Source of the DNA: Candidatus Thorarchaeota archaeon
GTDB taxonomy: Archaea; Asgardarchaeota; Thorarchaeia; Thorarchaeales; Thorarchaeaceae
Length of the DNA: 32,452 nucleotides
NCBI GenBank assembly: GCA_016839605.1
Contig: JAEOTX010000057.1
Coordinates: 1-32,452, forward strand
Direction: 5' to 3'
Positions within the stretch are counted from its first letter, which is position 1; the number at the start of each line of letters is the position of its first letter. The notes below the pieces were generated by a model. It did not search any database. It saw only the letters and a list, made by a program, of their open reading frames with translations, and was not told the DNA's origin. Both the position numbers and the translations under genes were made by a program. Shown one piece after another: positions 10,622 through 19,434 of this stretch.

Positions 10622-13600
10622 CTAGAGTTCATAGAAACTGATACCTTCTCCTTCGAGGACGTTGATGACCTCCTCTCGGATGGTGCTAAGCATATCCTCC
10701 TCAAGATCAAAGGCGGAGAGATTGTTCTTCACCTCGCTATCAACAGGCTCAGAGGATATAGCGCTTGCATATTGAGAGTTACCCATATACTTCTTGACAT
10801 TATTCACCACGCAGACCTCCAGATTATCCCCTTCATCTGCCTCCAAAAAAACAATGACCACCGTGTTAGATTGCAATTTCCTGATTTCGAGTCCCCTGTA
10901 CCTGAAGACGCAATTCCTTTCGTATAAAGGAATGGCACCATCCAATGTTGACTGGAATTCCTCATACCTCTCAGCTAGAGTTATCCTGTGGCTTTCAAAT
11001 TCATCATCAAGATTGTTGAGATAGGAGGTAGGAATCACAGATTCGACTTCCTGTCTAAATGCCTCCAGCTCTTCGTCAGGCGGCCTACCTGGAGTCAGTA
11101 TAAACGTGAATGACTTATTCATCCATGCCTTTTGTGTGGACTTCGATATAATAGACCAGACCAGCTGATTACCCTTTATCCTGTTCGAAAGCCTCCAGGT
11201 ATCACTTGACCAATCGAACTCATCGATATCCGCAGCCCGAATTGCTTCCTCAAACCGTGGGTACTGGTGGAGCCTCGAGAACCTAAGGTCCATGATGGCG
11301 TTAGCATTAAGTCTGACAGGATGCCACGTCCCCTTCCGCGAATCAAAGAGCGCCTTGCATTCAGCTAGCAACGCTAAAGCAAAGATATCGAATCCAACTT
11401 CCTCCAATCCTCTCAGGGATGAGTCTTGCGATAAATCCTCCATCTGGACATGATAGGCAGAATCTAGCCGCCGAATTACCAAAGTGACATCATCCCCGTT
11501 GGTCGAGGCGAGAAGCTCCCTGCAGGTCCTTGGATAATGAAACTCATCGGGGTAGAATCGGCTTCGATGAACTAAAGGTTTCAGAAACGAGAGTACATCG
11601 TCATCATAGTCGATATCACTTTTGTAATCCCATGCGAGGGTATTGCCCAGTGACCAATATCCCTTTCCCATTCGGATTGGAGTTCTGAGGAAGTGTACAA
11701 GCTCCTGCGTCCTTCCAAACTCATGTCGTTCCTCAACTGATTCACCCTCAATATTGACCTCATAAACCCTCAGGTCATCGTTGACATTCACCCTTAGTTT
11801 CACTGGTATGGTCTTGTGTTTCACTCGGGATAGCTTAACAAGTGCCTCCTCAATATAATCTGGAACCTCAGGCACATTAGTAGGAGGCACGAAGCCAGCT
11901 GTTGATTCCAGCTTGATCCAAGGAATGCTATTCTGCCGCCCGCTAGGTTTCCCATGGATAAGAGAGAATGAAGCCCATTCAAGTTCCTCATATTCGTTTA
12001 GTACAGGAATCCAGAGAATTTTAGTGTCCTGAACTGTGGTTACGATAAGTGAAGTTCTATCGGTTGACGATAGGGCTTCTCTTGCAAATTCCTTCAACCG
12101 CTGAGGAGCGGTCACGCACTGATGCCATTTCGACGGAATCCATCTATCGTTGAGCCCCTCAATAAATCCTGTTAGGACTCCATCATCATAAGGAATAATG
12201 ATAAGACCGTCATATCCAGATTCGGACTCCTCCCACACAATTGCACCAACCTGTTCTTCATCTGTCGCTCTCTCAGGAAGGTTGAGCTGTGAGAGAGTCT
12301 TAGTTCGAGTTCTGAGGTTGGATAAGATTGCCTGAAAGCTATACACTGACTTAGATTTGCTATCCTGCGTGTGCATGCCAAGCTGGTAGAATGTCCATTC
12401 CCCTACTGAGTTCCAGAGATGTTCTGCAAGATCCTGATTCCTGTCTTTTATAGCTGCTAAGACAGCTAAGAACAGGTTGTTGCCATACAGGAGGAGTAGG
12501 TCAGGAGTCGCTTCAACAATCTCCTCCATGGACTGCTTGTTCTCGGAGTTCAAGACTTCGTGAAGATTTTGTCTGAGGGGTAGAAGATCTTGCCAGACTG
12601 AAGCTCTCTTGGGGTCTTCAAGGATGATAAGCTGAATCTTCCTGAGTGAACCAAGGAAGAACTCCTTTCCGTTAAGGGAAGGGTTCTCCTTGAGAAGGGC
12701 AAACTGCTTTTCACAGACCTTCTCTATTCTCTTGCAGCAGTCCTTCAGACTCTTTGATAGGAAATGCTGTTTCCTCAGATATCGTGTCGCATGATAGAGC
12801 CGCCTGAGCTCAAGTTCGCGGGTTTCAAGGGTATCGATTCCGTTAGCCCCGATGTTGAAAGACATTTGAGTGTGAGTAAACACATTGGATTCTTCTTCAT
12901 CATCAATTTGCCTAGGCGTGAGTTCATAGAACCAGCGTCGTGTGATTTTCTTCTTTGGGCTTGTAAGAACATCACAATATCTTCTCTCTCCTCTTCTCGG
13001 GATGGGTGGAGGTCTTGTGACATCGAGGACCAACCTCTCACCCATTGTCGAGCCCCTTGTGGAGCTCACTGTCTGGACCATCGTCTGCCACTGAGGCTTC
13101 TTCGTTGGTTCTACGGGTTCTTCTTCTACTTCCTTGACAGACACATGGTCTCTACTCCTGAGGACGCTGGGCACAAGTGTCAGTGCATCCTCAAGGACCT
13201 CAGAGAATGATTCGCCTGATAGACTCCCAGTAGAAGCATAGATGCTGGAGAGGGTCACTCCTCTCTCGTACATGGACTGAGCTTCAGTAGTGTATGCGAT
13301 CACATCCTCAGGAGCGACGATTCTGTCCCGTCTAGCAAGTCCTCTGAACTTCTCTGCAAATCCCACAAGATGGGGGACGTGGATTGCAGCTCTCCAGGGT
13401 TCAGCCTTGGTTGGGGTGTCCTGCACAATGATTCGAACATTCTCCTGATGAGGGGTCGACCAACCAAATCCCCAGGGCGTCGTGGAGATATTATAGATGA
13501 CCTCGTCAAGATGGGTTCTACGAGGCGAGTCATGTCTGATTGGATTGACACATTTGCGCTGGTAATGTACATTCATTCGAGTATGAGGGGTTCCACTGTC

Positions 13601-15889
13601 AATCCAGATGATATTGACATTCGACTGGGGAAGAGAGTCAAGCAGATGCTGCTCAAGGGCACGGACGAGACTCTGCTGATATGCTGGAACCATCTCTTTG
13701 AGTTCCATCCAGCCATCAAGGATGATGATACGCTCATCCTCCTTCTCCTCAGGAAGAATGGTCCTGACGTGCTGGTCCAGTCTGTCTAGTGCCTCTGCTC
13801 CTTCTGTCAGAATGTCCGTAATGTTTGCGCTTAAGTCTAAAAACTCGATGGACTTGAGGGTAGCGTTGAGCTTTCGGTGGTCTATGCTAGAGATCATCTT
13901 CTCACGTAACAGAGAATCAAGACCGAATCGCTTCCCTACCAGTTCATCTGTCTTATAGTCCCCCTTGAGATCCAACCAAACGACCTTTTCGATAGGTGCC
14001 GTTGAGGTCTCGAGGCACTCTTGTATATGATGAAGGAGGTGCCAGTTTCGTGAGAGTCGTGCCGCCGTCACTCCCGAGGAGGTAGGTGAGGGAATTGACA
14101 CATAGAGTGTGAGGATGCGGTCGTCTGCCTCTCGGTCACTGAAGGGGCTCTCCACAGGTAGACTACATGGAATGACCATCTCATCCAAGAGGTCGGTTGG
14201 TCCACGGGAGGGGGCTACAAGTAGACCAACTCTTGGAACATCATCTCCAGTCCCTAGAGATTCTGGTGAAACTGAGATAGGTGCGTCCTGGTTGACAAGC
14301 TGATGAATGAGTCCTGTCGTCAGTTCTTCAAGGAGGAACTGAAAGGCTGGAAAGATCTCTATTGGGGTCTGGTCTGTATCTAGGACAATGACACCTTTCC
14401 ACAGAGAGGTTGGTGGAGTCGAATCGAAAGCCACTAGCTTCTCATAATCAGCAAGCATCTCATGTTCGTAGGTGTGTAGCTGCTGAAGTGCATCTGGTTC
14501 TGGACTCGATGTGACGAGAGAATTCCATTCGGCTTCGCTCAATGCGCGTTTCCAAGCATAGAAGGCAGGAGTGACTGATCTCTTTCGTTTGCGGATGATC
14601 TCCATTCCATAGAGGCTGAAGTCAAAGGCGGTCTTGGTCTTGACCTCAAGTACCATCACAGGTGTCCAGATGATTCGATCTGTGACCTCTCGTCTTATGA
14701 AGATGGTTAGGTCCACATGTCCAGAGCGTTTCGCAACAGGCAACTCAGCGACCACAAGAATTGGTGTCAGTGAATCGAGCATTTTGTCCCCTGAGAACAC
14801 TACTTGTCTCAATGAAACGGGATGGTGGAGATTGGAGAGGAGTATCCTGTGCCAGTTGTTTCCTTCTCGCTGACTGAGAGCTAATACGTGTTCGATGAGT
14901 TTCTCAACATCCTTGTCTGCAACCATTCCCTCATCAGTATCAATGTAGTCCAAAAGCTCTTCCATTGACTTTCTCTCAGTCTTGTCAGCTGCTTCCTTGA
15001 GCTGCCTGATAGCCTTCTTTCGAATCTTTTCGATGGACAGGTCTATCGAGCTCTCTCCGTGTGTCTTTGAGATTCGCTGACGAGTCCTGCTACGTTTCCT
15101 GTAGAGTGCCCGAATCTCAAGGACAATCTTCCTGAGCTCATAATCTGCATGGGGATTGAAGTTTGGTCTACCTGTCCTTCCATCAGTGTATATCCAATCA
15201 AGGAAAGGCTTCAGTCGATGAATGAGGAGCTGAATGTATCGATGCGACTCAGTCATAGGGACATGATAGATGAAACATTGCCGACAGAGTTCGACACAAT
15301 GAGCCCTGATCATATCCACAAAATCTAGTCCTGGCAGGGTGGGATGAGATAGAAATATCCGGGGGCTCTTTGCCTCTCGCTCGTACCCATATCGCCAGTA
15401 AATCTTCGTAGCGCCATCATCCACTATTTCGTCAGCTTCAGTCTTAGTGAATATTCTCTTGCTCCCATCTAGATATTCACGAATCTGAAATGCTTGCGGT
15501 CTTGGAAATGGGTAGAGGGTCATAGCAATATCGCGAAGTCGTGCTCCTGCATAGTTGAGTAGAGCGTTGAGTGGACCGACGGTTCCCTCCAGCCAGCTAT
15601 AGACCCGCTTGAGCTCTTTGTTTCCGAATCGCTTAGTGCTAGTCCATACAATCTTGAGAAACTGGCCACGCATATTTGGCTCTGCATTCTGGACGTGAGA
15701 AAAGTCGGTACCCCCCTGTTCGAAGTCTTTACGGGCTGAGTTCCACATCTTCTCGATGCTCTGATAGTGCCTACGAGTCTTCCTACTTACTCTATTCCGA
15801 GCTATTCGAGTCAATGCTACAAGGCCCATGTATATTGCAGTACTGATGGTACCACTTGGATTGTCGATCTTTCCTTTTCGACCCCTCAT
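10622..15889 (-). CDS. Giant multidomain protein (~1755 aa): RecB/Cas4-like PD-(D/E)xK nuclease, degenerate RecA-like ATPase fold, and uncharacterised C-terminal ~1000 aa
   Basis: Uninterrupted 5.3-kb ORF. EGNNWH, VAELP, GHVD, LEVK and QLHTY motifs (aa ~350-482 of the track ORF). SPTSSGVT, KVVWLD and IIILDG pattern (aa ~600-775). TTTATATG at 15920-15913 favours a leaderless ATG at 15889 over GTG 15913. Confidence 0.7.
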   Translation of the reverse strand: MRGRKGKIDNPSGTISTAIYMGLVALTRIARNRVSRKTRRHYQSIEKMWNSARKDFEQGGTDFSHVQNAEPNMRGQFLKIVWTSTKRFGNKELKRVYSWLEGTVGPLNALLNYAGARLRDIAMTLYPFPRPQAFQIREYLDGSKRIFTKTEADEIVDDGATKIYWRYGYEREAKSPRIFLSHPTLPGLDFVDMIRAHCVELCRQCFIYHVPMTESHRYIQLLIHRLKPFLDWIYTDGRTGRPNFNPHADYELRKIVLEIRALYRKRSRTRQRISKTHGESSIDLSIEKIRKKAIRQLKEAADKTERKSMEELLDYIDTDEGMVADKDVEKLIEHVLALSQREGNNWHRILLSNLHHPVSLRQVVFSGDKMLDSLTPILVVAELPVAKRSGHVDLTIFIRREVTDRIIWTPVMVLEVKTKTAFDFSLYGMEIIRKRKRSVTPAFYAWKRALSEAEWNSLVTSSPEPDALQQLHTYEHEMLADYEKLVAFDSTPPTSLWKGVIVLDTDQTPIEIFPAFQFLLEELTTGLIHQLVNQDAPISVSPESLGTGDDVPRVGLLVAPSRGPTDLLDEMVIPCSLPVESPFSDREADDRILTLYVSIPSPTSSGVTAARLSRNWHLLHHIQECLETSTAPIEKVVWLDLKGDYKTDELVGKRFGLDSLLREKMISSIDHRKLNATLKSIEFLDLSANITDILTEGAEALDRLDQHVRTILPEEKEDERIIILDGWMELKEMVPAYQQSLVRALEQHLLDSLPQSNVNIIWIDSGTPHTRMNVHYQRKCVNPIRHDSPRRTHLDEVIYNISTTPWGFGWSTPHQENVRIIVQDTPTKAEPWRAAIHVPHLVGFAEKFRGLARRDRIVAPEDVIAYTTEAQSMYERGVTLSSIYASTGSLSGESFSEVLEDALTLVPSVLRSRDHVSVKEVEEEPVEPTKKPQWQTMVQTVSSTRGSTMGERLVLDVTRPPPIPRRGERRYCDVLTSPKKKITRRWFYELTPRQIDDEEESNVFTHTQMSFNIGANGIDTLETRELELRRLYHATRYLRKQHFLSKSLKDCCKRIEKVCEKQFALLKENPSLNGKEFFLGSLRKIQLIILEDPKRASVWQDLLPLRQNLHEVLNSENKQSMEEIVEATPDLLLLYGNNLFLAVLAAIKDRNQDLAEHLWNSVGEWTFYQLGMHTQDSKSKSVYSFQAILSNLRTRTKTLSQLNLPERATDEEQVGAIVWEESESGYDGLIIIPYDDGVLTGFIEGLNDRWIPSKWHQCVTAPQRLKEFAREALSSTDRTSLIVTTVQDTKILWIPVLNEYEELEWASFSLIHGKPSGRQNSIPWIKLESTAGFVPPTNVPEVPDYIEEALVKLSRVKHKTIPVKLRVNVNDDLRVYEVNIEGESVEERHEFGRTQELVHFLRTPIRMGKGYWSLGNTLAWDYKSDIDYDDDVLSFLKPLVHRSRFYPDEFHYPRTCRELLASTNGDDVTLVIRRLDSAYHVQMEDLSQDSSLRGLEEVGFDIFALALLAECKALFDSRKGTWHPVRLNANAIMDLRFSRLHQYPRFEEAIRAADIDEFDWSSDTWRLSNRIKGNQLVWSIISKSTQKAWMNKSFTFILTPGRPPDEELEAFRQEVESVIPTSYLNNLDDEFESHRITLAERYEEFQSTLDGAIPLYERNCVFRYRGLEIRKLQSNTVVIVFLEADEGDNLEVCVVNNVKKYMGNSQYASAISSEPVDSEVKNNLSAFDLEEDMLSTIREEVINVLEGEGISFYEL

Positions 15890-15912
15890 CGCTGAAATAG
15901 TATCAAGAGGCA

Positions 15913-16130
15913 CATATAAATATAATTAATTTCGTTGGTAACCAAAATTACTCTAAATCATAATTTAAGCCATGATAAGCCTAATTTTATAAAATTGGGC
16001 TATTATAACATTATAATCTTAATAAGTTTATATTCATTCTGTATTACTATTTGGTAGGAGTTCAAAACCGATTCTCAAGACGAGGATTGGAGTGAACTCT
16101 CAAAGAAACAGGTCAGAAGTTTATATTCAT
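15913..16130. promoter_or_regulatory. AT-rich divergent promoter region with palindromic operator-like site and duplicated TATA element
   Basis: TATA boxes at 15920-15913 (-) and 16027-16034 (+). 24-bp palindrome AGCCTAATTTTATAAAATTGGGCT at 15978-16001. AAGTTTATATTCAT repeated at 16024-16037 and 16117-16130. Confidence 0.65.
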
Positions 16131-16142
16131 CAGGTGTATGAA

Positions 16143-17921
16143 ATGGGTCGCTCCAAGGGAACGATAATCAGCGTTAAAGTCCCAATCCGTTGGGGAGTCA
16201 TGACTGATAGGCAGAAGACTCGGCTCAACCGTATCACAGGTAGAGACACACGAGTCATCAAGGCCTATCTTGGAGTGATTGAACGCCATGAGAACGAATT
16301 GCTGACAGGTCGCAAACGGACGAGAATAAACGCTTCCCTATTGGATAAGCTCACCTTGACTGCATCACGGGGAAAGGCAGACAGGAGTCATGTGCCTCAT
16401 GACTTCAAGTCACGGTTTTCCAACATCTCTGTGAATGAGTTTCAGGAGTGTCGCGATACTGCGATTGCCATGTGGCAGAGCTACCTTGAGTTAAATCGCA
16501 GAAAGCCTCTTAGTGCGAAGAGATACTCAACGAGGAAGATTCCTCGATATGCATTCGCTCAACGTTTTCAGCGAATTTACGCACCAGAGCTCGAGATAAG
16601 ACACTGGCTCAAGCTTCGTGATTCGTTAGACTCCGTTTCTGCGGGTTGTAAAAGGCATGATAAACTCATGATCCCTCTCTCAATCTCCTCCTATCATCTA
16701 AACAAGATGAAAGAGGGTAAGGTGAAGACTGTTCGTATCTTCAAGGACTCCCGTCGCAAATGGTGGGCTATCTTCACTGTGACGCTCGATATAGAAGTCC
16801 TGGAATCATCTATGAAACCTCCTGCAGTCTTGTCTATTGACTTGGGGATCGACAAGGCTGCGTGCTCCGTGCTTCTTACTCAGAAAGGATACAAGCAAGT
16901 CAGATACTGGAAACAGGAAGACAAGCTTCGACGAATGAGAGCGTTGGATGACAGGATTGCTTCTCTTCAGAGGGAGAAGGAAACACTTCTTTCACAGGGA
17001 AGGAATGCTGATGCAGTCAGCAGAAAACTCCGGAGCCTGAGCGGAAAAAGACAGCGTGTTAGTAAAGAGCTTGACAAGAATCTGGTCAAGGGCATCTCGG
17101 AACACATCCAAGAGATGGCCGACCAATTCGACCTCTATGTCTCAATTGGCAAGGTGAAGGGCATAAGGAACACAGCTCGAAGAGGCAACTTCAAGGGAAG
17201 TAAGTTCAGAGGTATGATTCACCGCTGGGCCTTCGCCAGGATTCGCGATATGTTGGACCATAAGCTCGCTACGCTTGGTTTTGATGGCAAGCATTACAGA
17301 GCTGTTCCTGAACAATGGACTTCAATCATGTGTCACAAGTGCGGACACAAGGGAATGCGACCGAAACAGAATCTCTTCATCTGTCACACCTGTGGATATC
17401 GTGCAAACGCCGACCTGAACGGCGCCATCAATATTGGGAAGCGCCTCATCATGCTCATCCGCTCACTGAGAGATGAGAAAGGACTAGGGATGTGGCTCAC
17501 TCCAAAGGACAGAGCCATCCTGAAAGCCCGGAGGAAGACTCGTTCATCTCAAGGGAAGTCCTCATTCCCCCAGAAGTTGCCAGCTTCGATTGAAGGGGAG
17601 TCCGTGGCTGACTGCAGTGACCAGACCTCACTTGTGGAGTTTGCGAGCAGTGAAGACCCCGCCATGGTAAAAGCTGTGGAAGAACCGTCTGCATCCAGCA
17701 AATCTGGTAGCGCTGGAGGAATGCAGCGGACAGAAGCCGGGTCCCGACAGAGGAACAATGTTCCGCTGAAGTTGGGCAAAGCTCCCGTCATTTCAAGAGA
17801 TGAAAGTCTTTTGGAAGCTGGTGACAGCAGTCGTGAGAAAGGTGGAACGCAGAAGTTTCTTGTTGGTTCACTCAACCAAAAACAAGCAACAGTTCCTAGG
17901 CAAAAGAGTAATCTCCCTTGA
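16143..17921 (+). CDS. tnpB: TnpB/Cas12f-like RNA-guided nuclease with rearranged RuvC-II, and no adjacent tnpA
   Basis: RuvC-I LSIDLG, HRWAFARIRDMLDHK helix, WTSIMCHKCG...FICHTCG zinc finger, RuvC-III NADLNGAINI. The RuvC-II position reads VSIGK. Start set at ATG 16143 (AGGTG SD); the track starts at 16092. Confidence 0.88.
   Translation: MGRSKGTIISVKVPIRWGVMTDRQKTRLNRITGRDTRVIKAYLGVIERHENELLTGRKRTRINASLLDKLTLTASRGKADRSHVPHDFKSRFSNISVNEFQECRDTAIAMWQSYLELNRRKPLSAKRYSTRKIPRYAFAQRFQRIYAPELEIRHWLKLRDSLDSVSAGCKRHDKLMIPLSISSYHLNKMKEGKVKTVRIFKDSRRKWWAIFTVTLDIEVLESSMKPPAVLSIDLGIDKAACSVLLTQKGYKQVRYWKQEDKLRRMRALDDRIASLQREKETLLSQGRNADAVSRKLRSLSGKRQRVSKELDKNLVKGISEHIQEMADQFDLYVSIGKVKGIRNTARRGNFKGSKFRGMIHRWAFARIRDMLDHKLATLGFDGKHYRAVPEQWTSIMCHKCGHKGMRPKQNLFICHTCGYRANADLNGAINIGKRLIMLIRSLRDEKGLGMWLTPKDRAILKARRKTRSSQGKSSFPQKLPASIEGESVADCSDQTSLVEFASSEDPAMVKAVEEPSASSKSGSAGGMQRTEAGSRQRNNVPLKLGKAPVISRDESLLEAGDSSREKGGTQKFLVGSLNQKQATVPRQKSNLP
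17470..17890 (+). ncRNA. Candidate omega/reRNA scaffold overlapping the 3' end of tnpB
   Basis: Consecutive hairpins with G-U pairs on the + strand, including an 11-bp stem with GAAA loop (17791-17816). The overlying ~130 aa are low-complexity. The position matches known TnpB reRNAs. Confidence 0.6.
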
Positions 17922-17937
17922 TGTAGAGGTTAAAGAC

Positions 17938-18351
17938 ATGCAAGAGATGAGGGAACTCCTGAACTACGTGATCAAATCAAAGCGATATCTCAAAGAGATA
18001 TACTACACCAATCGAGATGAGAATCTGAAAGCTGATGCGAAGGAGCTTGTCGCAGCCATAATAGCAGTTCAGAGAACTCTCGAGCACATTTTGACTTTGA
18101 AGCGAAGATCAAAGACAGCCAAGAGAGTTCTTGGAGACAGGAAAGCTGAGATGTCAGTTAGGCGGTGGAGTGCAGGACTTCCCCGAAGAGTGAGTGACTA
18201 CGTCGAGAAGGAGAAGAAGCTGGAGCAGCATCATCTACATAGATATCAGGTTATTCTTCTCCAATATTTGGAGAATATGGGGACTGAACTAGTCGCATGG
18301 GCTGAGGACATCGATATGCTTCGCGAAATTCCTCGCATACCCAAGGACTAG
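17938..18351 (+). CDS. Hypothetical alpha-helical protein (137 aa)
   Basis: GAGGT SD before ATG 17938. Charged helical composition. The track start at 17800 overlaps tnpB and is unlikely. Confidence 0.65.
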   Translation: MQEMRELLNYVIKSKRYLKEIYYTNRDENLKADAKELVAAIIAVQRTLEHILTLKRRSKTAKRVLGDRKAEMSVRRWSAGLPRRVSDYVEKEKKLEQHHLHRYQVILLQYLENMGTELVAWAEDIDMLREIPRIPKD

Positions 18352-18354
18352 TCA

Positions 18355-19434
18355 TTACCAGCGAAGTCGTGCAGCAACTCCTCCAAATGAGTTCAATTGT
18401 GCACCGGATTCGGTCTGTCCAGAGAAGACCATGAGCTCAGTGCCATACTCACTGATTTCATCATATAGTGAATCGATGAGCTCGGTATGATCTTCAGAAA
18501 TCATAATGGTCTCAACGCGGCCTGCTCTGAGGGCATCCATGACCTCTTTTTTGCCATAAGCTACGGCATTCTCGCCCTTCATCAGATCTTCCATGAATTT
18601 ATCCCATATCTGTCGCTCAGCAAAGATTTCTGTTTCTTTGAGAAGACGTGAAGCCTCTTTCATAGCTTGAAATAATCCAGTCTCATCAATGATGCTCACT
18701 GGTATGATGGTCTCTGCAATCTTCTCACGGATTCGATAGTCTAAGTCACCCTTCTCAAGAAACTCCTGACACCGAATTGTATTGCCTCCTAGGACTATGG
18801 CATCCACGTTGTCTATATTCTCCAGAAGAAGGTCCTTTAGCATCCTTCCAACGTACCGGAAGAACTCCATCATTTTTTCTTCTCTAATACGCAAATACCG
18901 CTTGGCACTCTGACCGCCCGCGCGAGTCTTTCCGATGATATAGAAGTCCTCATCACGGACAAGTTCCATGTGCTTGCCACGTAGATAGCCTATGGTAACC
19001 TTACCACCTTCAATCAACGTGATGACAACCAGACTCTTGGGTAGAGTCATATCTTCAAGCTCATCAGTGATAAACTCTCGACCACAGATGTAAGTAAACT
19101 GTGAGATTGGGGATGGAGGAATGACCATCTCACGGATCTCCTCGGTAGTTCCACCCTCTTCAACGATTCCAAAGAAGAACGCCACGCCATTCTCAGGCAT
19201 GGAGTTGATTAGGTTGAGCTCGCTAAGGATTGCTGTGAGATTGTCTTGCACGTTCTTTCTATTCGGTTTGCTCTTGATGTTATCAGCACCTGCCAGCTCA
19301 GCTTTCACAAAGCCTGTCACATCCACTAGACTCTTTGTCGGAGGGATGTAAAGTGTGGTGAAAGAGCTATGTCTACCCTGGAGTGCCTTTAGTTGTTGGA
19401 CCTTTCTCTTGAGCTTCTGACGCTCGGCAGACAT
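18355..19434 (-). CDS. prf1: Archaeal peptide chain release factor 1 (aRF1)
   Basis: NIKS, YICGREF (YxCxxxF) and GGQSAKRY motifs, and C-terminal FGGVAARLRW. GAGGTGA SD before ATG 19434. Confidence 0.93.
   Translation of the reverse strand: MSAERQKLKRKVQQLKALQGRHSSFTTLYIPPTKSLVDVTGFVKAELAGADNIKSKPNRKNVQDNLTAILSELNLINSMPENGVAFFFGIVEEGGTTEEIREMVIPPSPISQFTYICGREFITDELEDMTLPKSLVVITLIEGGKVTIGYLRGKHMELVRDEDFYIIGKTRAGGQSAKRYLRIREEKMMEFFRYVGRMLKDLLLENIDNVDAIVLGGNTIRCQEFLEKGDLDYRIREKIAETIIPVSIIDETGLFQAMKEASRLLKETEIFAERQIWDKFMEDLMKGENAVAYGKKEVMDALRAGRVETIMISEDHTELIDSLYDEISEYGTELMVFSGQTESGAQLNSFGGVAARLRW

Follow-up and report, generated by a model that had tools for sequence, protein, structure and literature searches.

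The stretch of DNA analysed here, called the window, comprises 32,452 nucleotides of a Candidatus Thorarchaeota genome (positions 1 to 32,452 of contig JAEOTX010000057.1, assembly GCA_016839605.1). It contains a tnpB gene whose product lacks the glutamate of the canonical RuvC-II motif and displays a glutamate further downstream, just ahead of its zinc finger. An initial annotation, made from the nucleotide letters, had read this protein as a nuclease with a rearranged, Fanzor-like active site. The comparisons described below suggest that tnpB most probably encodes a catalytically competent RNA-guided DNA endonuclease of the RuvC-II-rearranged class. They also show that in a large TnpB clade, spread over two Asgard phyla, the relocated-glutamate site is the norm and has been kept under strong selection. 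The gene and its catalytic residues, numbered according to a 609-residue open reading frame (ORF) from GTG 16092 to 17921 on the plus strand, are as follows:

16143–17921, plus strand: tnpB coding sequence; ATG 16143 is the probable start, and the stop is TGA 17919–17921.
16839–16841, plus strand: RuvC-I aspartate D250 in the SIDLG motif (residues 248–252), of the D-Phi-G type; Asp in 120 of 120 close and 44 of 46 distant homologues.
17148–17150, plus strand: Gly353 at the canonical RuvC-II glutamate position, in YVSIGKVKG (residues 349–357); Gly in 120 of 120 close and 43 of 46 distant homologues.
17310–17312, plus strand: alternative RuvC-II glutamate E407 in VPEQWTSIMC (residues 405–414), six residues ahead of the first CxxC; Glu in 120 of 120 close and 45 of 46 distant homologues.
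17331–17393, plus strand: C4 zinc finger C414/C417/C431/C434; the Cys columns are invariant or nearly so among homologues.
17412–17414, plus strand: RuvC-III aspartate D441 in the NADLN motif (residues 439–443); Asp in 120 of 120 close and 45 of 46 distant homologues.

By locating these motifs in the translation we confirmed that D250, G353, E407 and D441 stand where the initial annotation had placed them, including the 54 residues that separate Gly353 from Glu407. The 609-residue numbering fared less well. Nearly all homologues begin at a methionine that matches residue 18 of this ORF and corresponds to ATG 16143. The true numbers are therefore probably lower by 17 (D233/G336/E390/D424); the 609-residue numbering is kept in this text. 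The protein matches the Cas12f1-like TNB domain (Pfam PF07282, 4.1e-15) and scores 102.1 bits with NCBIfam NF040570 (guided_TnpB; cut-off 100). By profile, the tnpB product is a TnpB with a split RuvC domain and a zinc-finger TNB insertion.

The conservation of these residues was assessed on a close set of 120 homologues (55–84% identity) and a distant set of 46 full-length representatives (25–50%). The initial annotation had proposed an alignment with canonical TnpBs as a check and had stated that poor conservation of Glu407 in close homologues would speak against its reading. All 120 close homologues retain this glutamate, as do 165 of the 166 relatives in both sets together. A joint MAFFT alignment of 147 TnpBs, including copies from Heimdallarchaeota genomes and 75 from viral contigs, shows that the two columns are mutually exclusive. 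The states at columns 353 and 407 are Gly/Glu in 71 sequences, Glu/Pro in 70, Glu/Ala in three, Glu/Ser in one and Ser/Glu in one; Gly/Pro and Glu/Glu are never seen. All 71 TnpBs with glycine at 353 have glutamate at 407. Since the 74 canonical TnpBs in this alignment carry glutamate in the column of Gly353, this column is the canonical RuvC-II glutamate column, and the replacement of the canonical residue by glycine is borne out. None of the 74 has a glutamate in the column of Glu407, which in canonical TnpBs corresponds to the proline of the D-P-x-x-T-S motif. The lone distant representative with the canonical glutamate at 353 has alanine at 407. Asp347, considered as a substitute catalytic residue, was ruled out, as it is not conserved among the homologues.

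Loss of the canonical glutamate could also signify inactivation. The protein would then be a nuclease-dead RNA-guided DNA-binding regulator similar to TldR, with Glu407 kept for structural reasons only. This explanation would also accommodate the absence of a transposase nearby, the fixed position of the gene beside a large partner gene and the copy of a promoter in a guide-like position of the 5' untranslated region (UTR), all described below. However, mutually exclusive Gly/Glu and Glu/Pro states are the pattern expected from relocation of a catalytic glutamate, and inactivation does not predict it. The Asp-Gly-Glu-Asp pattern is invariant in close homologues and present in 43–45 of the 46 distant ones, which indicates that selection maintains it. 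The three acidic residues and the zinc finger are invariant in upwards of 160 sequences, including those with just 25% identity. Dead TnpB derivatives lose several catalytic residues (Altae-Tran et al., PMC10691335), whereas D250, E407, D441 and the zinc finger are all intact here, and enzymes with the same rearranged site cleave DNA (PMC10530073, PMC11832414). We therefore regard a dead regulator as very improbable. The preference of the initial annotation for an active nuclease over a TldR-like repressor appears well founded, given the conserved Asp/Glu/Asp residues and the covarying omegaRNA-like structure discussed below.

An AlphaFold2 model, built on an alignment of 106 sequences, gives the topology around the relocated residue. 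The model has an overall predicted local distance difference test (pLDDT) score of 81.5, with values above 90 for residues 21–480 and below 50 in the C-terminal tail. Its RuvC domain starts with strand beta1 (244–251), which carries D250 at its end. Strands beta2 and beta3, a long helical insertion and strand beta4 (347–354) with G353 at its end come next. Helices then lead to strand beta5 (402–406), directly followed by E407, the zinc ribbon and a helix (440–455) that starts with D441. In the model this order of secondary structures is that of RNase H, and E407, following beta5, would adjoin the end of beta4. Altae-Tran et al. 2023 (PMC10691335) described this arrangement for the RIIr branches of TnpB: the glutamate has moved from beta4 to beta5, which is also its place in RuvX.

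The best Foldseek matches in the PDB are AsCas12f (E 1.8e-16), OsCas12f, ISFba1 TnpB, ApmFanzor2 (rank 16, E 6e-12) and ISDra2 TnpB; the predicted overall fold is TnpB/Cas12f-like. A phmmer search against the PDB returned Cas12f proteins as all five best matches. The phmmer match to ApmFanzor2 ends with residue 450 aligned to residue 510, an offset of 60. With the published triad D324/E467/D501, this offset puts E407 on E467 and D441 on D501, an equivalence deduced from alignment end-points and published residue numbers. The spacing of 34 residues between E407 and D441 is identical to that between E467 and D501 in ApmFanzor2. A 20-residue query around E407 gave no match.

A TnpB nuclease requires a guide RNA, and the 3' end of the gene bears features of one:

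17457–17896, plus strand: omegaRNA-like scaffold under the disordered C-terminal tail (residues 456–592), recognized by codon-position constraint and covariation.
17855–17890, plus strand: terminal hairpin of the right end with GTTCACTCA at 17866–17874 in the loop region, kept in about 20 loci.
17897–17916, plus strand: probable guide segment, the first flank bases after the end motif AAG(A/C)AACAG(G/T)TY; the boundary is uncertain by about 6 nt.

Codon-position identities were computed on 14 intact family members. In the core (residues 21–455), identities at positions one, two and three are about 0.73–0.86, 0.82–0.86 and 0.48–0.56, which is the mark of ordinary protein-level selection. In the tail (residues 456–592) the third position reaches 0.71–0.76 and is as conserved as the first two. 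This constraint, together with the disorder of the tail in the AlphaFold2 model, indicates that the conservation of the tail resides in the nucleic acid. A consensus structure over 17594–17861, derived from the last ~310 nt of 19 loci, has 12 helices with 77 pairs in total, and compensatory double changes affect 34 of these pairs. Complementary bases fill 95.4% of the paired cells, compared with 38–45% when the partners are slid by one to three columns, and none of 500 shuffles reaches the observed values. Many invariant G-U pairs fit the plus strand, and the window sequence retains every covarying helix.

The terminal hairpin differs in its stem from locus to locus but retains its pairing, with CUUGUU/AACAAG in the window and CUUACA/UGUAAG elsewhere. 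It is followed by AAGAAAYAGGTY, beyond which the loci are unrelated: similarity between loci stops at about 17896. A structured RNA over the 3' end of tnpB that gives way to a variable flank is the organization of a TnpB omegaRNA, and by analogy with these RNAs positions 17897–17916 are the probable guide segment. In Asgard TnpB loci, Altae-Tran et al. (PMC10691335) noted GTTCACTCA next to a hypervariable region that resembles a guide. No Rfam family matched in 15800–18400, and the single-sequence folding energy does not single out the tail (z = -1.37 versus -1.25 for a core control). No conserved target-adjacent motif (TAM) was recognized upstream of the left boundary across the compared loci. 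Two further observations concern the right end. A putative ORF of 183 residues without family match (17800–18351, plus strand) begins within the tnpB 3' end and extends into the flank. Four loci from different genomes (L002, L010, L019 and L020) share an identical sequence right after the right end, starting with TTCATAGCCAAGCTAGGCC, as would be expected of a repeated target or of an adjoining repeat element.

The conserved triad, the mutual exclusivity of the two glutamate positions, the topology of the model and the covarying guide RNA together make an active rearranged nuclease well supported. In this enzyme, an RNase-H-like RuvC domain would retain Asp250 on strand beta1 and Asp441 where the last helix begins. 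Gly353 stands in place of the glutamate that normally closes beta4, and Glu407 at the end of beta5 would have assumed that residue's role, a solution shared by RuvX-type folds, Fanzors and TvTnpB. Glu407 would coordinate metal together with D250 and D441, and the enzyme would cleave DNA. The final ~440 nt of tnpB would give rise to its omegaRNA, which would contain a hairpin with a GUUCACUCA loop followed by AAGAAAYAGGUY. The flanking DNA at about 17897–17916 would supply the guide, the exact guide and TAM bases being putative.

Sites of this type have been described before. Jiang et al. 2023 (PMC10530073) showed that the canonical glutamate is missing from all Fanzors and from a TnpB2 group that is monophyletic, and that these proteins have an alternative one about 45 residues downstream. 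In the same study the E467A variant of ApmFanzor was inactive, and archaeal TvTnpB from Thermoplasma, which has the same arrangement, showed TAM-dependent DNA cleavage without collateral activity. In the catalogue of Altae-Tran et al. 2023 (PMC10691335), RuvC-II is rearranged in two major clades and eight large branches, some of which are nearly confined to archaea. Yoon et al. 2023 (PMC10711439) divided the alternative-glutamate TnpBs into a D-Phi-G clade and a DPG clade, with Fanzors and cyanobacterial IS607 pro-Fanzors solely in the latter. Their fingerprint of Fanzors and pro-Fanzors is DPG in RuvC-I combined with an alternative glutamate six residues before the zinc finger.

The window protein has a non-acidic residue in the canonical glutamate column, a glutamate six residues before the first CxxC, and a D-Phi-G motif (DLG). 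The published regular expression D{P}G-x(120,160)-E-x6-CxxC-x(12,18)-CxxC-x(4,8)-D matches it exactly from 250 to 441. Among the 166 full-length relatives, 143 match this pattern and 23 match neither pattern, mostly because of spacing; the corresponding DPG expression fails for the window protein and for every one of these relatives. A scan of viral contigs detected 77 canonical TnpBs and two D-x-G alternative-glutamate TnpBs, and no protein that combines DPG with the alternative glutamate.

In a FastTree phylogeny of 81 non-redundant TnpBs, one change (support 94) suffices to separate the alternative- from the canonical-glutamate proteins. A Thorarchaeota clade contains the window protein, with starred support, and is itself part of a larger DLG alternative-glutamate clade that includes Heimdallarchaeota copies; DPG occurs in none of the 55 alternative-glutamate rows. 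Since these rows were picked by similarity to the query and Fanzors were left out, the tree shows clade membership and not the relation to Fanzors. By sequence, the window TnpB belongs to the published class with D-Phi-G and alternative glutamate (TnpB2/RIIr), which is spread across Thor- and Heimdallarchaeota. The relatives in the complete genomes of Heimdallarchaeum aukensis and endolithica (L038–L053) are 33–36% identical, ~490–540 residues long and present in 8–10 copies per complete genome; they combine D-x-G with the alternative glutamate and are devoid of the long tail.

The host lineage had led the initial annotation to consider the protein relevant to the origin of Fanzors. On this reading the family would be a close archaeal relative or even the source of the Fanzor lineage, and its Asgard host would bear on how eukaryotes acquired these nucleases. 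The E-x6-CxxC position and the 34-residue spacing, both identical to those of ApmFanzor2, fit with this idea, as do the spread of the clade through Thor- and Heimdallarchaeota and the presence of IS607-family transposases in related modules of other Thorarchaeota (see below). Yet the RuvC-I motif is DLG, and DPG occurs in none of the 166 relatives, which by the division of Yoon et al. (PMC10711439) separates the family from the Fanzor clade. Searches of solved structures favour Cas12f, with Fanzor2 only at rank 16. The IS607 transposases that were found sit beside canonical-glutamate TnpBs, and none adjoins the alternative-glutamate type in the loci examined. Finally, published phylogenies derive Fanzors from cyanobacterial IS607 TnpBs. 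We consider a close or ancestral relation to Fanzors highly improbable and do not uphold the claimed relevance. The attribute "Fanzor-like" remains valid for RuvC-II, where the E-x6-CxxC arrangement is that of Fanzors, and fails for RuvC-I. Because the relocated glutamate is standard across an Asgard TnpB clade, a Fanzor-type glutamate shift by itself is no evidence of Fanzor ancestry. With the DPG signature absent, the window tnpB does not support a link between Asgard archaea and eukaryotes through RNA-guided nucleases.

The neighbourhood of tnpB is dominated by a giant gene in divergent orientation:

10622–15913, minus strand: protein of 1763 residues, divergent from tnpB; intact ORF without a Pfam family.

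Homologues of this protein occupy the same divergent position upstream of tnpB in 13 fetched loci. Loci with both genes include L004, L005, L011, L013, L014, L017, L023–L026, L032 and L034, and genomes G003–G005 carry them as well. Four Thorarchaeota genomes contain 4, 8, 11 and about 30 matches to the giant protein, and at least 20 of these matches lie 1.3–1.7 kb from a gene with a TNB domain. This neighbour is either an alternative-glutamate TnpB of ~580 residues or a TnpB of ~710–740 residues whose site is canonical (FFEDL, NPAWTSQ). Two contigs have an IS607-family transposase (NF033518, 181–195 bits) at the end of the giant gene distal to tnpB, in the order TnpB, giant gene, TnpA. A homologue of the giant gene in a third contig has an IS607-family transposase (177 bits) immediately upstream. 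These transposases belong to loci L135/L140 (G005:C20), L136/L139 (G004:C123) and L137 (G005:C189). The arrangement suggests IS607-like elements with a 5-kb cargo. The giant units observed with a linked TnpA carry the canonical-glutamate TnpB, not the alternative-glutamate type, and in no locus examined does an IS607 TnpA stand beside the latter.

Close tnpB homologues occupy differing neighbourhoods. The closest one (L008/L009, 84% nucleotide identity with window positions 15411–17874) has tnpB in common with the window but, of the giant gene, no more than the first ~165 codons; the giant gene is truncated there to an ORF of 197 residues. The right flanks of the two loci are unrelated, with FEN1/XPG in the homologous locus and an aRF1-like gene in the window.

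Several findings weigh against a fully functional tnpB in the window. The end motif reads CAGTTC in place of the usual CAGGTC. In most homologues the tnpB stop is a TAA in the 3' strand of the terminal hairpin; the stem change in the window (CUUGUU/AACAAG) removes this codon, so that the ORF continues for 14 codons beyond the usual stop, into the guide-side flank, to TGA 17919. The window copy could thus be slightly decayed. The TnpB paralogues in the same genome are 46–68% identical and several contain stop codons; as they are divergent and partly broken, recent mobility is not evident. Searches of the 80%-complete genome detected no Y1 TnpA (PF01797), serine recombinase (PF00239) or Cas1, and the window holds no transposase remnant. 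The family might therefore be active while the window copy is a decaying, immobile relic. Against this view, the ORF is intact and includes every conserved motif, the pairing of the terminal hairpin is preserved by a compensatory change, all covarying helices of the scaffold are present, and the partner gene is an intact ORF of 1763 residues. We judge decay of this copy to be unlikely.

The 5' UTR of tnpB contains a second set of conserved elements:

16024–16037, plus strand: DR1, TATA-like box AAGTTTATATTCAT that probably serves as promoter for tnpB; DR2 is an exact copy.
16055–16114, plus strand: conserved 5' hairpin unit in the tnpB 5' UTR, ending in AAGAAACAGGTC; kept in 22 loci.
16117–16130, plus strand: DR2, an exact 14-nt copy of DR1 in the 5' UTR, directly after the 5' unit and ahead of a Shine-Dalgarno-like CAGGTG.

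Single-sequence folds of the 22 loci show that the outer stem of the 5' unit is constant and that its inner stem varies with pairing kept. RNAalifold recovers only three pairs, though each sequence folds into the same two-stem hairpin. The AAGAAACAGGTC at the end of the unit is the motif that also closes the right end and the omegaRNA scaffold. Two explanations for this unit were rejected: an independent miniature inverted-repeat transposable element, as in its own genome the unit is found solely beside tnpB copies, and a duplicate of the omegaRNA, as there is no similarity beyond the end motif. The octamer GAGTGAAC of the 5' unit (16090–16097) and GTTCACTC in the loop of the 3'-terminal hairpin (17866–17873) are exact reverse complements. 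The complementarity makes an RNA-RNA contact between the two possible; both segments are nearly invariant, so covariation is uninformative.

The pair of DR1 and DR2 is present in 17 of the 22 loci. It occurs in 14 sequence types that co-vary between the two sites, and none of 5000 permutations reaches the observed match. The TATA-like box of DR1 predicts a transcription start near 16057, which is where similarity begins in copies devoid of DR1. DR2 thus looks like an RNA copy of the promoter of tnpB itself in guide polarity: 14–17 nt of promoter sequence follow directly after a scaffold-end motif in the tnpB 5' UTR. DR2 may serve as a second guide for autoregulation, be left over from an end junction, or be one of a pair of recombination sites. 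By analogy to tracr-L with Cas9, one may imagine that TnpB is part of a transposase-less, multi-copy two-gene module with its ~1,700-residue partner, and that besides the 3' omegaRNA it uses a second short 5' guide to regulate its own promoter. We rate this scenario as quite doubtful.

The remaining genes of the window agree with an archaeal chromosome. They include those for both phenylalanyl-tRNA synthetase subunits (PheRS alpha and beta), RadA, an aRF1-like protein and geranylgeranyl reductase. PheRS-alpha falls into a cluster at 90% identity or above whose named members are Candidatus Thorarchaeota, and the named close TnpB homologues all come from metagenome-assembled genomes of Thorarchaeota. 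On these sequence grounds the window is part of an archaeal chromosome with Thorarchaeota as host, so that the initial attribution to a probable Asgard archaeon was correct.

Many TnpBs and the Fanzors are already known to have this rearranged active site, and within that variant class the window protein is unremarkable. Its family enlarges the pool of candidate compact nucleases, which may be free of collateral activity, each with a well-defined guide RNA supported by covariation. What surrounds the gene is less usual than its active site: a giant partner gene recurs across loci, sister modules contain IS607 transposases, and the 5' UTR holds a copy of the promoter.

The window protein can be compared with several known systems. 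With canonical IS200/IS605 TnpB (ISDra2; D191/E278/D361) and Cas12f the window protein shares the domain order of WED/REC, RuvC-I, RuvC-II, zinc finger and RuvC-III, and these proteins are its best fold and profile matches. In contrast to them, its catalytic glutamate is relocated and replaces the proline of D-P-x-x-T-S. Fanzor2 from Acanthamoeba polyphaga mimivirus (ApmFz2, PDB 9B0L) resembles the window protein in the place of the glutamate relative to the zinc finger, the 34-residue distance from Glu to Asp and the TnpB-like fold. Sequence and fold searches nevertheless rank Cas12f and TnpB higher. Unlike Fanzor2 and the cyanobacterial IS607 pro-Fanzors, the window protein has DLG instead of DPG, no IS607 TnpA partner and no N-terminal extension with a nuclear localization signal, and it is encoded on a prokaryotic chromosome.

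The aCas1-associated Asgard TnpBs (Cas1H-Asgard-1/2, Altae-Tran et al. 2023) also have an Asgard host and GTTCACTCA beside a variable guide-like 3' region. In the window, however, GTTCACTCA precedes the variable region and sits in the loop of a hairpin, and no Cas1 (PF01867) was found in the same genome or in three other Thorarchaeota genomes with the family. The Cas1 genes of Heimdallarchaeum are far from the related TnpBs.

The closest likeness in active-site terms is to the TnpB2/RIIr class with D-Phi-G and alternative glutamate, exemplified among TnpB2 proteins by TvTnpB from Thermoplasma volcanium (E323; Jiang et al. 2023); the window clade is likened to the RIIr branches by their published description. 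Common to both are glycine at the canonical position, a compensating glutamate on beta5 six residues before the zinc finger, a D-Phi-G RuvC-I motif, an archaeal host and an omegaRNA that overlaps the 3' end of the gene. The window protein differs in size (~590 versus ~400 residues) and has a disordered tail of ~135 residues over an omegaRNA of ~300–440 nt. In contrast to these relatives, the window tnpB has no adjacent Y1 or serine TnpA and stands next to a divergent ~1,700-residue partner, with a conserved hairpin unit in its 5' UTR.

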